Virus record (IMG/VR): IMGVR_UViG_2737471839_000025
Location: 1 to 30,291 of that record
Direction: 5' to 3' (one strand)
DNA length: 30,291 nt
Origin: a virus
Taxonomy: Duplodnaviria > Heunggongvirae > Uroviricota > Caudoviricetes
Of the stretch, positions 1-6,000 are shown piece by piece (position 1 is the stretch's first letter; each line of letters begins with the position of its first letter). Made by a program: the position numbers.

Positions 1-3000
1 TTACTTCTTCGCCTCTGCAACCACTTTACTACCCACGCCGCGGTTATTGTATTCCCACATGCGGTTGTAGTTAGTGTCATTCAGATTGCGCTGTATTTCG
101 TCGTTATCATCTACGCTGCCGGTATTACCCGCAAACGGACGATTAGAGATCACCGCATCGGCCCACGGTTTAGCCGTGTTAAAACCTTCGTTGATGGCGC
201 TATCACGGATCACCACCTGACCGTTGGTATTGGCATCAACATCCAGCGAGCGGCCCAGTTGCGCCACACCATCACCGAAAGCATTGAAACGGCTGTTTAC
301 GGCGAGGAAACCGTAGTAAATGTTGGACAGCGTAGCCGGTGCAAACACATACGCTTCTTGCTGAGTACGTGAGTTCACCACGCGGAATTCGGTGTTATCG
401 AACACCACTGCGCCGCGACCAGAAACGATATCCACATCCCCTTCAATGTAGCTGTTGGTCACCAGCGTACGCGGCTGACGATTCGTTTCCAGACGGTTCT
501 GCACACCGCTGTTGGTGACAAAGAAGGTGTTCTGACGACCGAGAATGTTAACGTTGTTAATCTGTACCTGGTCACCATCAGTACGCAGTGCCACCGCCGG
601 ATGGTTACCTGCATCTACGCTATCGCCCAGCGTGTTTTCGATGGTCAGATTTTGCAGTTGCAGGCCATTGTTTTGTGACCAGAAGACCGCAGAGCAGAGA
701 ACACCGATACTGTCGCTGCGTTTGCTCTGGCAGCTATCGTACATATACCACGCTGGTTTACCTGGCATATATTTGCCGCGCGGGTTGACGTCGTGACGCC
801 AGTCGGCAGGGCTCATGCCACCATCAAGGGAAAGCCCAATCTTCACATCAATCGGTTTTTCACCTGTACCGTACAGAGTAATTCCACCCGGAGCGGCAGG
901 GACATATACCGTTCCCTGATACTCACCAGGCATCACGGCAATATACTGGCGCTTGTTGGTACGCTTGATAATTGCCGCATCTACCGCCGCCTGAATCGTG
1001 GTATGCGTTACACCTTGAGTGCCCGCCGGGCCGACAACAAAGTCAGGTTGCGCAGGCAGGGTAATCGGGGAAGGATTCCACGCTGCAGCACCTGGTGTCA
1101 GGGATGCAAAATAGTGTTGAGCATCGAAATTCTGCGCTTCTTTTGCCGACAGAATCGGGCGAGAAGAGGTACCAGGCGCGGTTTGATCAGAAGGACGTTG
1201 ATCGGGCGGGGTTGAGCTACAGGCGGTCAGCGTCACGCCAAAAGCCAATGCCAGCGCCAGACGGGAAACTGAAAATGTGTTCACAGGTTGCTCCGGGCTA
1301 TGAAATAGAAAAATGAATCCGTTGAAGCCTGCTTTTTTATACTAAGTTGGCATTATAAAAAAGCATTGCTTATCAATTTGTTGCAACGAACAGGTCACTA
1401 TCAGTCAAAATAAAATCATTATTTGATTTCAATTTTGTCCCACTCCCTGCCTCTGTCATCACGATACTGTGATGCCATGGTGTCCGACTTATGCCCGAGA
1501 AGATGTTGAGCAAACTTATCGCTTATCTGCTTCTCATAGAGTCTTGCAGACAAACTGCGCAACTCGTGAAAGGTAGGCGGATCCCCTTCGAAGGAAAGGC
1601 CTGATGCTTTTCGTGCGCGCATAAAATACCTTGATACTGTGCCGGATGAAAGCGGTTCACGACGAGTAGATGCAATTATGGTTTCTCCGTCAAGAATCTC
1701 TTTGCATTTATCAAGTGTTTCCTTCATTGATATCCCGAGAGCATCAACATGCAATGTTGTTGGGATGGCAATTTTTACGCCCGTTTTGCTTTGCTCGACA
1801 TAAAGATATCCATCTACGATATCAGACCACTTCATTTCGCATAAATCACCAACTCGTTGCCCGGTAACAACAGCCAGTTCCATTGCAAGTCTGAGCCAAC
1901 ATGGTGATGATTCTGCTGCTTGATAAATTTTCAGGTATTCGTCAGCTGTAAGTCTTGATCTCCTTACCTCTGATTTTGCTGCGCGAGTGGCAGCGACTGG
2001 GTTTGTTGTTATATGGCCTTCAGCTATTGCCTCTCGGAATGCATCGCTCAGTGTTGATCTGATTAACTTGGCTGATGCCGCCTTGCCCTCGTCTATGTAT
2101 CCATTGAGCATTGCCGCAATTTCTTTTGTGGTGATGTCTTCAAGTGGAGCATCAGGCAGCCCCCTCCTTATTGCTTTAATTTTGCTCATGTAATTTATGA
2201 GTGTCTTCTGCTTGATTCCTCTGCTGGCGAGGATTTTTTCGTAGCGATCAAGCCATGAATGTAACGTAACAGAATTATCACTGTTGATTCTCGCTGTCAG
2301 AGGCTTGTGTTTGTGTCCTGAAAATAACTCAATATTGGCCTGTATTGCTTCAGTGATTGCTATCCTCCTGTCTCGGCCTAATCCAAACTCTTTACCCGTC
2401 CTTGGGTCCCTGTAGCAGTAATATCCATTGTTTCTTATATAAAGGTTAGGGGGTAAATCCCGGCGCTCATGACTTCGCCTTCTTCCCATTTCTGATCCTC
2501 TTCAAAAGGCTACCTGTTACTGGTCGATTTAAGTCAACCTTTACCGCTGATTCGTGGAACAGATACTCTCTTCCATCCTTAACCGGAGGAGGGAATATCC
2601 TGCACTCGCGTACCCATCGACGAACTGTTTCAAGGCTTCTTGGGCGTCGCTGGCGTGCGTTCCACTCCTGAAGTGTCAAGTACATCGCAAAGTCTCCGCA
2701 ATTACACGCAAGAAAAAACCGCCATCAGGCGGCATGGTGTTCTTTCAGTTCTTCAATTCGAATATTGGTTACGTCTGCATGCGCTATCTGCGCCCATATC
2801 ATCCAGTGGTCGTAGCAGTCGTTGATGTTCTCCGCTTCGATAACTCTGTTGAATGGTTCTCCATTCCATTCACCTGTGACTTTGAATTTCATTAAGTTTC
2901 ACCTGTAAAAAAAGGAGCCGAAGCTCCTTTGATATTAAAATTCGAATTGTCTCGCCCGAAGGCTTTTTAACATTGGTCTTGCCCGTTCGAAAATGGCGCT

Positions 3001-6000
3001 TGTCTGGTCAATTCGTGTTGCCTCCCTGAGCAATGCGTCTCTGTTTTTCGTCACCGTGTAGAAAGTCTCAAACGCGATGTCATACAGCTTGCTCGCGTAT
3101 GATGAGTTCAGTTCCTTCAATATCGGATACAGGCGTTTGCTGATGTCCTGTGCTTTCTCCATCTGTACCTGCATGTAGCAGAGGAGGATGATTTCCTCGT
3201 CTGTGAATTGCTGTGCTGGTTGCATGCTGCGAAGTTTCTTTTCGCACTCGATGAAGTATCGGCGTATCTGGCGGCCTTTTTCGTTGTGCTCCACCATCGC
3301 CAGTTCTTTGGCTGTGTCGAGGGTGAGGTGGTAATCCTTGCGGTTGTGACCGCCTCTACCAGATGTTTGCTTTCCCAAATTGGAAAGCAAAATATAGTCT
3401 TGATTTTCAATGAATTCGTATTCTGAAATGCGATTTGTAATCCATGCCGCAAACACCTTTTTCACGCCTAAAAAAGCATGCAGATCGCGGGCATTGCAGA
3501 GTAGGGCTGTTTCGTTGGCGATAGTGCCGTTGAATACGGGGATGAGTTGACTGGTCATTTTTATGTCCTTTGCATTTGTTCAGATAGCCCTGTGTTCAGC
3601 AGGGCGGTCAGGTACTTGAACACCGTGCAAAGTCGGCCCGTATCCTTAACCTTTCGGTTGTTTTTCGGTATACGCGCTACCCGACCATATCTGAGAAATG
3701 GACATAAAAAAGCCGCATGACTGACGGGTGCGGTTTCCGCTTTGCAAGGTGTGTTCAGCACCATGAAGCGGAATATAGCCCCGTTAATGCGGATTTGTCA
3801 AATCATGTGGTCTTTATCTTGCTGTAAGCCGCGCCATTCGGTCTTTTCCCCCAGATTTGGGGAAAACTATCTTGTCAAAATCATGCAGCCTTTCGTTCTC
3901 CTTCGATGAGTTCCTCGATCTTGTGCACTCCCGCCTCGTTGTAGCGAAATGTCTCGACCTGCTTGTCACTGTGCGCCGATTTGTCGATGAACCACTTCCC
4001 GTACTTTTCTGTTTTGAGCATGTAGGTGTTGGCAATGCGCCCTATCTTGTTGGCTGAAATGCCAAGCATGGTGCCAACCTCCGACGCAGAGTAGTGATGT
4101 TCATCAATGACCGGAAGAGGGATTGCACTAAAGCCGACGACGGGATTAATCAGGCTGGCGGCAACGACCTGTTTAGCTTCCGGTGCGAGGTGAGGGAGGA
4201 AGTCGAAGAGGTCTTTCATTGTGTCGACGGTCATTTTCAATGCGCGTGCCTTACGGAATTCTTCAAGGCCATCCGGTGATTTCTTCGTGGTCGTTTTTTG
4301 TTGCAACTGCTGTTGCATTGATTCAAGTTTGTCGACCAGCGAACGACGGACGGCTTTCGACTCACGTGCGGCGACGCGCAGGGCTTGCTTGTAGGTCATC
4401 ACTATAACCACCTGATCCGCTCCGCCTTTTTTCTTATCCATGGGGGTTACGAAAATTTCGTAACCCTCCCCCTCAAGCTCATCTTTGATGCGTGCAATGA
4501 AGTCGTTGTTGCGTACTTCTTTTTCGCCTCGCAGTCTCCGCGCCTCATTAACCATTTTCAACAGCATCTGGCTGTCAATTGTTGCAGCCGGAAACGAAGA
4601 CTGATTTGCAATATTGTTAATCATGTATTCTGTCCTTTTCAGATAAAAGAAATCCCCGCCAATGCGAGGATTGTTATTCATTGCTGATACTCACCTTAAT
4701 CTCAACATTTCGCAGCTTTAGCTCTACTGGCAGGTCTGACTTTCCGGTTAATGCTAATGCGAGATTTTCTGGAGTAATGAGAGCAGTTATTGTTTTCCCC
4801 CTCGCCAGACGAATAATCATTCGTATCTCGCAATCGTCACATGCTCCCGGTCGAACAATTGAGATTTGTCCGTTCATCTCACTCTCCTTTGATGCGAATG
4901 CCAGCGGCGCGCTCGGCTTCACTTTGTTCCCAAAACCACTTGTGAAGCGCCATAAGCTTTTCGTCAATCGGTGCATATTTGCGATTAAAGTAGGCCTGAG
5001 CATCTTTCTCAGATTCGTCCGGTAATTCGCCAGGGCCAAACAGTGTGTTATAAATCCATGCTAGTCCGCTCTTAGCGTCGCCAGTTGCCTGCCATTCGAT
5101 AATGGCAGCCTGCATGACCAGAATGTTTTTCCCGATTAATAGGTCCAGTTCTTTGTACCGGTTGCGGATGTATGCATTCTCGCTTTGTAATTTTGCGTTG
5201 CGCTTTTCTGAGGCTTCAAGTAACGCCTGCTTATCGCGTAGAGCTTCTTCCAGTTCAGCAACATGGCATTCACTATCAATAAGGTTGTTCTCTGCTGCTT
5301 CAAGCTCAACACGCAGCTTCCCAACCGTAAGCGCAATCTCCTCGTTCTCCTGGTCGCGGCGTTTGATGTATTGCTGGTTTCTTTCCCGTTCATCCAGCAG
5401 TGCCAGCACAATCGATGGTGTTACCATCTCATGGAAAAGGTCCACATCAAATCCCCAGTCGTCATGCATTGCCTGCGCTGCCGCTTCACGCAGTTCCTGA
5501 TAGTTAATTTCGCTCACTTCGAACCTCTCTGTTTACTGATAAGCTCCAGATCCTCCTGGCAACTTGCACAAGTCCGACAACCCTGAACGGCCAGGCGTCT
5601 TCGCTCATCTATGGGATCGCCACACTCACAACAATGAGTGGCAGATATAGCCTGGTGGTTCAGGCGGCGCATTTTTATTGCTGTGTTGCGCTGTAATTCT
5701 TCAATTTCTGATGCTGAATCAATGAGGTCTGCCATCTTTCATTAATCCCTGAATTGTTGGTTAATACGCTTGAGGGTGAATGCGAATAATAAAAAAGGAG
5801 CCTGTAGCTCCCTGATGATTTTGCTTTTCATGTTCACCGTTCCTTAAAGACGCCGTTTAACATACCGATTGCCAGACTTAAGTGAGTCGGTGTGAATCCC
5901 ATCAGCGTTACCGTTTCGCGGTGCTTCTTCAGTACGCTACGGCAAATGTCATCGACGTTTTTATCCGGAAACTGCTGTCTGGCTTTTTTGATTTCAGAGT

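Follow-up and report, generated by a model that had tools for sequence, protein, structure and literature searches.

In a 30,291-nucleotide (nt) stretch of DNA from an Escherichia coli lambdoid prophage (IMG/VR record IMGVR_UViG_2737471839_000025, positions 1 to 30,291; hereafter the window), the gap at 3559..3880 between two antirepressor-like genes is probably an antisense control cassette that resembles immI of phage P1 and is built on a small RNA (sRNA) of the sRNA-Xcc1 family. We put the probability of this reading at roughly 0.7. By analogy, the RNA most likely silences the AntA gene that follows it, as the C4 RNA of P1 silences its antirepressor. The gap measures 322 base pairs (bp) and separates the genes for a 207-amino-acid (aa) AntA protein and a 247-aa protein. 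On the minus strand its parts are ordered as follows: a promoter, a leader with a first pair of boxes (b1/a1) and a terminator-like hairpin, an 89-nt RNA, a second pair of boxes (b2/a2), the AntA gene, and a terminator.

The cassette starts with a sigma-70-type promoter (3772..3801, minus strand), in which TTGACA (3801-3796) and TATATT (3777-3772) are separated by an 18-nt spacer and agree with the consensus at 11 of 12 positions. The predicted transcription start lies at about 3765, and both hexamers are kept in the homologous gaps of Nil2 and P13374. The leader (3700..3764, minus strand) carries a b1-like UGAACA (3757-3752) and an a1-like UGCAAAG (3746-3740), followed by a terminator-like hairpin, CCGCA...UGCGG with a run of six U (3733-3706, minus strand). 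A small hairpin, GCGG-AAA-CCGC (3740-3730, minus strand), competes with this terminator-like structure. The leader element AGCGG..CCGCACCCG..CAUGCGGCUUUUUU is kept in Nil2, P13374 and EDL933.

The RNA itself (3598..3686, minus strand) belongs to the sRNA-Xcc1 family, Rfam RF02221. In a whole-window Rfam scan, the covariance model matched with 69.3 bits, compared to a gathering score of 53 (E = 8e-11), and the match is full-length, covering model positions 1-87 of 87. Positions 3686-3678 pair with 3614-3606 to form the closing stem, hairpin 1 ends in a GAAA loop, and hairpin 2 presents the specificity loop CUUUGCA (3632-3626). The 3' junction reads UGUUCA (3622-3617), and the closing stem is followed by the tail GCCC (3605-3602). 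This RCCC tail is at the same time the 5' arm of a further hairpin, CCCUG-CUGAACA-CAGGG (3588..3604, minus strand), which holds a third UGAACA box in its loop. It has a covarying counterpart in P13374 and Nil2 (CCCU-CUCAAAA-GGGG), where the loop is Nil2's own b box. There is no -10 box suited to a transcription start at 3686.

The AntA translation-initiation region (3556..3582, minus strand) contains b2, UGAACA (3582-3577), then AA, then a2, UGCAAAG (3574-3568). The a2 box overlaps the Shine-Dalgarno (SD) sequence AAGGA (3570-3566) of the AntA gene, whose ATG is at 3558-3556. The loop CUUUGCA and the junction UGUUCA are exact complements of UGCAAAG and UGAACA, in both box pairs. The 30-kb window has three occurrences of the composite motif TGAACA-N(1-8)-TGCAAAG, all of them in the gap, against 0.03 expected. 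Two of the copies are direct and one is inverted, and the three complementary segments lie less than 200 nt apart on one strand. With the segment spanning hairpin 2 and the junction, the leader is predicted to form a duplex of -23.6 kcal/mol, a value reached by 0 of 1000 shuffled targets.

An earlier note on this DNA had described the gap as structured, had found no convincing open reading frame (ORF) in it, and had suggested that it may hold either the promoter and operator of the neighbouring genes or a small RNA. The structure, far above chance expectation, and the small RNA are borne out by the RF02221 match at 3686..3598 (minus strand) and by the excess of the composite motif. The absence of a coding sequence also held. 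The gap contains no conserved ORF, only three mechanical ones (67, 57 and 55 aa) without a Pfam or PHROG match, and we rejected it as coding sequence; in Nil2, P13374 and EDL933, stop codons in the homologous gaps break up the longest ORF, of 67 aa. The suggestion of a promoter with its operator survives in part: the promoter-like site is there, but no protein operator was found; by eye, no LexA or CI operator was seen near the promoter, and no formal search for one was made.

Further evidence comes from co-variation. The homologous gaps in Nil2, P13374 and EDL933 have the same parts, each with an RF02221 match, and in all of them loop and boxes change jointly: CUUUGCA and UGCAAAG in the window, CUACUUG and CAAGUAG in Nil2, CUUUGAAG and CUUCAAAG in P13374, and CUUAUUUG and CAAAUAAG in EDL933. 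In an alignment of Nil2, P13374 and the window, the junction and its box also change together, from UGUUCA/UGAACA in the window to UUUUGA/UCAAAA in Nil2.

To extend the comparison, viral contigs were scanned for the conserved hairpin-1 core, and 100 distinct RNAs were recovered whose closing stem measures 7-12 bp. Rfam confirmed the RF02221 identity of 18 of the 20 loci sampled. Hairpin 2 is hypervariable, with 83 distinct versions among the 100 RNAs, and its loop follows the flanks of its own locus. Among 81 viral RNAs with distinct loops, a perfect match of at least 7 nt was present within the 90 nt downstream in 68% of the cognate and 4.9% of the non-cognate comparisons, and within the 150 nt upstream in 74% and 6.4%, respectively. 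An independent set of 75 genomic RNAs, also with distinct loops, gave 53% versus 4.5% downstream and 84% versus 7.7% upstream. About 70 chance pattern matches are expected in the genomic collection, and only matches with a closing stem were kept. Whole-probe duplex energies were noisy, the stems being GC-rich, and exact-complement statistics were used instead.

The position of the boxes is also conserved. The loop-complementary downstream box adjoins an SD-like motif in 63 of 70 relatives, with the start codon mostly 8-11 nt beyond, and the second, junction-complementary box is found 3-8 nt upstream of the first. A promoter-like site lies at most 220 nt upstream in 49% of the 100 related RNAs (5% of controls), and a terminator-like site precedes the RNA in 59% (1% of controls). 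As for the RNA fold, the closing stem has 41 distinct 9-nt halves among the 100 relatives, all of which pair over 7-12 bp, and the stem pairs of hairpin 2 show 17-27 double changes in 60 sequences. RNAalifold, run on a MAFFT alignment, recovered only the tip of hairpin 1 and hairpin 2, with the ends misregistered; the closing stem is supported by the Rfam model and by searching directly for pairs. In 83% of the relatives the closing stem leads into an RCC(A/C/U) tail, and in 58% an AUG precedes it.

The RNAs are linked to antirepressor-like genes. Among 96 downstream proteins there were 60 family matches (KilA-N 14, Bro-N 12, AntA 9, ORF6N 9, P22_AR_N 8, Rha 8), and the rest are small proteins without a family. 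Most of the downstream genes, like the AntA gene in the window, encode proteins of these families.

In the mechanism that we propose, a transcript from the cassette promoter, or from pL read-through, would be processed to release a stable RNA. The enzyme would likely be RNase P, as with C4, because an RCC(A/C) tail follows the closing stem. The RNA would then pair with UGAACA..UGCAAAG at the AntA ribosome-binding site, either in trans or, prior to processing, in cis, and block translation, so that the lysogen would not make the antirepressor-like protein. If the RNA paired with the leader copy, it could feed back on termination there, or else the short leader transcript could act as a decoy like IsrK and titrate the RNA. 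Compared to the duplex at the SD site, the one with the leader is stronger, and it would cover GCGG (3740-3737), the 5' arm of the small hairpin that competes with the terminator; therefore, leader pairing should favour termination, a speculation for this subtype only. The hypervariable loop would set the specificity, making cassettes with different loops mutually blind, as are P1 and P7.

Several observations weigh against this reading. The duplex at the downstream SD site (7 + 6 bp, -15.3 kcal/mol) is modest and is matched by 6.5% of shuffled targets. The minimum-energy single-sequence fold of the window RNA differs from the family fold and has a z-score of -1.05; single-sequence folding was uninformative both for the RNA and for the leader, whose z-score is +0.31. 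A terminator-like hairpin stands between the promoter and the RNA. G.U and A.C mismatches number 10 and 5, too few cases to separate selection on RNA from selection on DNA. Pairing, RNA processing and repression are all inferred. The Rfam C4 model finds nothing at 3598-3686, even at E = 10, and because of this we claim, by analogy, that the gap RNA works like C4, and make no claim of homology or of membership in the C4 family. Finally, in the founding subgroup from Xanthomonadaceae (five loci, from Xanthomonas and Rhodanobacter), the boxes covary perfectly within a leader hairpin that is followed by a strong terminator, but no complementary box is present at the downstream SD. It follows that not all members of the family repress at the ribosome-binding site. 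Pairing with the leader is what the family conserves best, and SD repression may be an elaboration of phage cassettes.

One alternative is that no diffusible RNA product is needed, and that the gap is a structured 5' untranslated region of the AntA mRNA in which alternative pairings among the leader boxes, hairpin 2 and the boxes near the SD set both termination and ribosome access on the same molecule. The three complementary segments share one strand and a span of less than 200 nt, hairpin 2 has more extensive complementarity to the leader than to the SD site (-23.6 versus -15.3 kcal/mol), and the a1 box abuts the small hairpin that competes with the terminator stem, as such a purely cis-acting region would have it. 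We nevertheless consider it unlikely, as discrete RNAs of about 88 nt with mapped ends are known from Xanthomonas (PMC2996969; 88 nt in strain Xcc 8004) and an abundant 89-nt species from EDL933 (PMC5331693). In addition, the tRNA-like closing stem and the RCCA-like tail suggest excision, and C4, which is structurally parallel, acts in trans (PMC12197685). The RNA could also act both in cis and in trans.

A free-standing, Hfq-type trans-acting sRNA with targets in host or other phage mRNAs, placed next to AntA only incidentally, is a still poorer candidate. Such a role has been proposed for sRNA-Xcc1 in Xanthomonas and Xylella. Many host targets have been predicted in Xylella (PMC12189769), the EDL933 copy is abundant (PMC5331693), and the Xanthomonad subgroup has no box at the downstream SD, all of which would suit such an RNA. 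Yet the hypervariable loop (83 distinct versions in 100 RNAs) follows its own flanks rather than any host target that is conserved, the RNAs are strongly associated with antirepressor-like genes, and matches to the box pair within the window are confined to the cassette. That the boxes are in the first place DNA operators, two direct and one inverted, for a phage protein such as the 247-aa one, with the RNA match secondary, is very improbable: three copies of a bipartite motif would fit a DNA-binding protein, the 247-aa protein has a predicted MerR/RacA-like DNA-binding domain and the G.U test left the question of the strand unsettled (10 versus 5), but the RNA scaffold around the inverted copy is conserved, covaries and has a curated covariance model of its own, the downstream copy goes with an SD and a start codon and not with a promoter, no copy overlaps the -35 or -10 hexamers, and the upstream neighbour gene differs among loci.

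The 207-aa protein (2935..3558, minus strand) is encoded downstream of the RNA, which would control its gene. The earlier note had called it AntA-like and asked for a domain search, which agrees: Pfam identifies AntA (PF08346, E = 1.1e-25, 90.5 bits versus a gathering threshold of 27) and P22_AR_C (PF10548, E = 2e-8, 34.6 bits versus a threshold of 22.4). The protein also matches PHROG 377, 'anti-repressor Ant' (E = 1e-92), and is 95% identical to the 'anti-repressor protein' of an Stx2a phage; the label antirepressor is given by homology only. In the Stx2a-converting phages LC645410-LC645451, which have an identical gap, the AntA protein is conserved only over residues 1-90 (98.9%). The N-terminal AntA domain moves with the RNA cassette, while the C-terminal half is swapped. 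The AntA gene is followed by an intrinsic terminator (2905..2932, minus strand), AAAGGAGC-UUCG-GCUCCUUU and then UUUU, a stem-loop that also surfaced in the Rfam scan under a spurious family name. From 3801 to 2905, the cassette is self-contained and closed by the terminator of the AntA gene.

For the 247-aa protein (ATG at 4624, end at 3881, inside an ORF at 3881..4681; minus strand), the description as regulatory or antirepressor-like is upheld by PHROG 1726, 'anti-repressor' (E = 2e-96), and by fold matches, and is not reflected in sequence families: no Pfam or NCBIfam family was found at E = 0.01 or better, there was no sequence match in PDB, and KilA-N, Bro-N and ANT/KilAC domains were not recognised by profile. 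The AlphaFold model, made with 23 homologues and with a mean predicted local distance difference test score (pLDDT) of 74.7, has two domains, an alpha/beta one at the N-terminus and a winged-helix, MerR/RacA-like one at the C-terminus. In Foldseek searches it matched predicted viral antirepressor, KilAC and KilA proteins with E = 1e-9 to 1e-7, and only its C-terminal 60-70 residues resemble DNA-binding domains of the RacA/BldC/MerR type in PDB. The predicted protein thus resembles phage antirepressor/KilA/KilAC proteins, PHROG 1726 and the predicted fold forming the whole support for this, and the phrase 'two antirepressor-like genes' is, by homology, a fair description.

The earlier note had also pointed to a palindrome, CCCCAGATTTGGGG, at 3849..3862, as an example of the hairpins in the gap. 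The palindrome is present, but it falls outside the RNA cassette, within a gene remnant (3812..3865, minus strand), 53 nt of an antA/antB-type coding sequence that would encode GKRPNGAAYSKIK. Many E. coli genomes have antA/antB coding sequences with an internal segment that is 92-94% identical to this piece at the DNA level, and its translation corresponds to residues 92-104 of an antA/antB-type protein (tblastn). The fossil is also present in P13374 and is a recombination scar travelling with the cassette. We rejected the 3849-3862 hairpin as a regulator, as it belongs to the gene fossil and has no U-run on the transcribed strand.

In Nil2, the homologous gap lies in the nin region, between 'antA' and 'antB'. 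The Nil2 record (AJ413274) annotates a 'promoter by homology' at the equivalent of 3801-3772, and its account of the two genes is that an ant gene was split by a 'putative bacterial retrotransposon'. The sequence between antA and antB is in fact the Xcc1 cassette, contrary to the record's retrotransposon reading.

The setting of the window is the early-left arm of a prophage. The window starts within ybhC (1..1284, minus strand), which is followed by a lambda-type integrase (1419..2489) and an excisionase, xis (2467..2685), and this order identifies a lambdoid prophage at ybhC, i.e. at the lambda attachment site. The early-left arm is entirely on the minus strand, and a perfect match to the lambda cIII thermoregulator (8598..8540, minus strand, 88.5 bits) confirms a minus-strand early-left operon. 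Between xis and an Ead/Ea22-like gene (4879..5517, Pfam E = 2e-21), the 55-aa, 207-aa and 247-aa ORFs are located where the earlier note had placed them, all on the minus strand. The 55-aa ORF (2725..2892, minus strand) belongs to PHROG 676 (E = 4e-38), whose function is not known, and the Pfam scan gave no match for its protein; a terminator-like hairpin (2733-2718, minus strand) stands at its end. Another terminator-like hairpin (4651-4672, minus strand), AATCCTCGC-ATTG-GCGGGGATT with a T-rich run, lies between an upstream small ORF and the 247-aa gene. The accessory genes of this block seem to have each their own terminator, in a moron-like fashion.

The cassette is not restricted to this prophage. 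Among 5,426 complete E. coli genomes, 79 contain the full gap at a coverage of at least 80%, as do 30 phage records, most of them from Stx2a-converting phages. The RNA has relatives among the Gamma-, Beta- and Alphaproteobacteria, and also in Desulfovibrio. RefSeq annotates no feature in the gap. The homologue in EDL933 corresponds to an abundant, poorly translated 89-nt 'sRNA-Xcc1' transcript (PMC5331693). The EDL933 coordinate given in that study does not fit RefSeq, and the copy was placed by its offset from the sok/hok locus and confirmed with Rfam; its layout is near-identical to that of the window.

RF02221 was described as an sRNA of Xanthomonas campestris integron cassettes, and has also been reported in APSE phages, Xylella islands and prophages of enterohaemorrhagic E. 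coli (EHEC). That it lies upstream of ORF6N or symE genes had been pointed out before, with no mechanism given. The study of Chen et al. 2011, going by its title as cited by others, reportedly presents sRNA-Xcc1 as a trans-acting sRNA under the control of HrpG/HrpX. Other work reads the family through predicted host or plant targets (PMC12189769), and a review from 2025 on phage-derived sRNAs discusses C4, sar and IsrK without mention of Xcc1 (PMC12197685). A C4-like three-site logic for sRNA-Xcc1 was not found in the literature searched, which excluded Chen et al. 2011. The RNA family and its presence in EHEC prophages were thus already known, and the proposed C4-like logic appears to be new within the literature searched.

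A wider generalisation is possible, and we offer it tentatively. The sRNA-Xcc1 RNAs may be a second widespread class of C4-like, 'programmable' immunity RNAs of phages, integron cassettes and islands, and not virulence sRNAs. Each RNA would have a private loop that fits a decoy in the leader of the same cassette and, where the cassette belongs to a phage, also the ribosome-binding site of an antirepressor-like gene. Differences in the loop would link prophages into a network of antirepressor locks, blind to each other or cross-reacting, that decides which residents are co-induced, with the terminated leader acting as an anti-antisense sponge that opens the lock. If the antisense reading is right, an Rfam family that has existed since about 2012, and that ranges from Xanthomonas to Haemophilus to EHEC, gains a concrete mechanism, as a cis-encoded antisense RNA that controls the neighbouring gene with specificity. 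Antirepressor-like genes near int in lambdoid and Stx prophages would be silenced by a private RNA lock, and the window would hold two such locks, one of the Xcc1 type and one of the C4 type. This would bear on prophage cross-induction, and on the induction of Stx phages in multi-prophage strains. Such gaps should not be annotated as empty.

Compared to the known systems, the gap RNA shares with the other RF02221 members the closing stem, the two hairpins and the tail, as well as a position just upstream of a mobile-element gene (ORF6N in APSE, symE in Xanthomonas integrons). It departs from them in hairpin 1, where the near-invariant family core AUACAA-N-ACCCG-N-AAGGGGAA is replaced by CCGAAAAACAACCGAAAGGUUAAGG. 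Our reading also differs from the sRNA-Xcc1 literature searched, in which the RNA is a virulence-linked trans-acting sRNA and not a cis-encoded antisense regulator of its neighbour. The sar RNA of P22 is likewise a small RNA that blocks translation of ant mRNA at the ribosome-binding site, but sar is made from the opposite strand across the ant start, whereas the gap RNA is encoded on the same strand and would use short, imperfect boxes.

The IsrK/c4-a1b1 element (RF01394), the leader known from Gifsy-1 and from lambdoid nin regions (Hershko-Shalev et al. 2016, cited through PMC12197685), is likewise a short leader with its own promoter, target boxes and an intrinsic terminator just upstream of an antisense RNA gene. 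The isrK and c4-a1b1 models have no match in the gap, and the boxes of the gap leader, unlike those of IsrK, are not both displayed in hairpin loops.

A close parallel is C4 (RF01695, RF03163). The C4 RNA of P1 acts at the ribosome-binding site upstream of ant, where it blocks translation, and sets the heteroimmunity of P1 and P7 (PMC12197685; PMC8198154), through the a1b1/a2b2 sites of immI (Citron and Schuster 1990, cited through the same two papers). C4 acts in trans (PMC12197685) and, according to PMC11143913, which cites Hartmann et al. 1995, is a substrate of RNase P. The Rfam consensus of C4 runs from an AUG flank through a closing stem, a tetraloop hairpin, a variable-loop hairpin and a 7-nt junction back to the closing stem and an ACC tail. 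The Xcc1 family shares this plan, except that its closing stem is shorter and its first hairpin longer. In the gap RNA, the closing stem has 9 bp compared to 17 in C4, and the longer hairpin 1 contains a conserved internal loop. Furthermore, no icd-like ORF lies between the gap RNA and its ant-like gene, and the gap cassette is situated in the early-left arm, by xis and int of a lambdoid prophage. The two share several features. Both are encoded on the same strand as, and upstream of, an antirepressor or antirepressor-like gene. In both, two boxes at the ribosome-binding site downstream are complementary to the loop and the junction, and the leader repeats these boxes (a1/b1). They also share the RCCA-like tail, the AUG flank and a loop whose sequence differs between elements.

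The window allows for a direct comparison, as it contains a second, canonical cassette at 17339-17612 (plus strand), with a promoter, an isrK/c4-a1b1 leader (17361-17450), a C4 RNA (17476-17559, 66.7 bits with the Rfam C4 model) and a 244-aa protein starting at 17612, which looks ORF6N-like by eye only. The first loop of this leader (CAAAAU) mismatches the loop of the window's C4, which suggests a mosaic leader. In the C4 RNA, the junction CGCCAA pairs with UUGGCG, and the loop GGUUUC with GAAACC, about 8 nt before the SD. The order and geometry of the boxes are the same here and in the gap, and the -10 context GGGGCTATATTCC is identical in the gap promoter and in the C4 module (17356-17368). 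On two viral contigs, L043 (2422-3753) and L073 (2349-3141), isrK-C4 modules directly adjoin an sRNA-Xcc1 module, and on L043 the order is isrK, C4, Xcc1, gene, isrK, C4.

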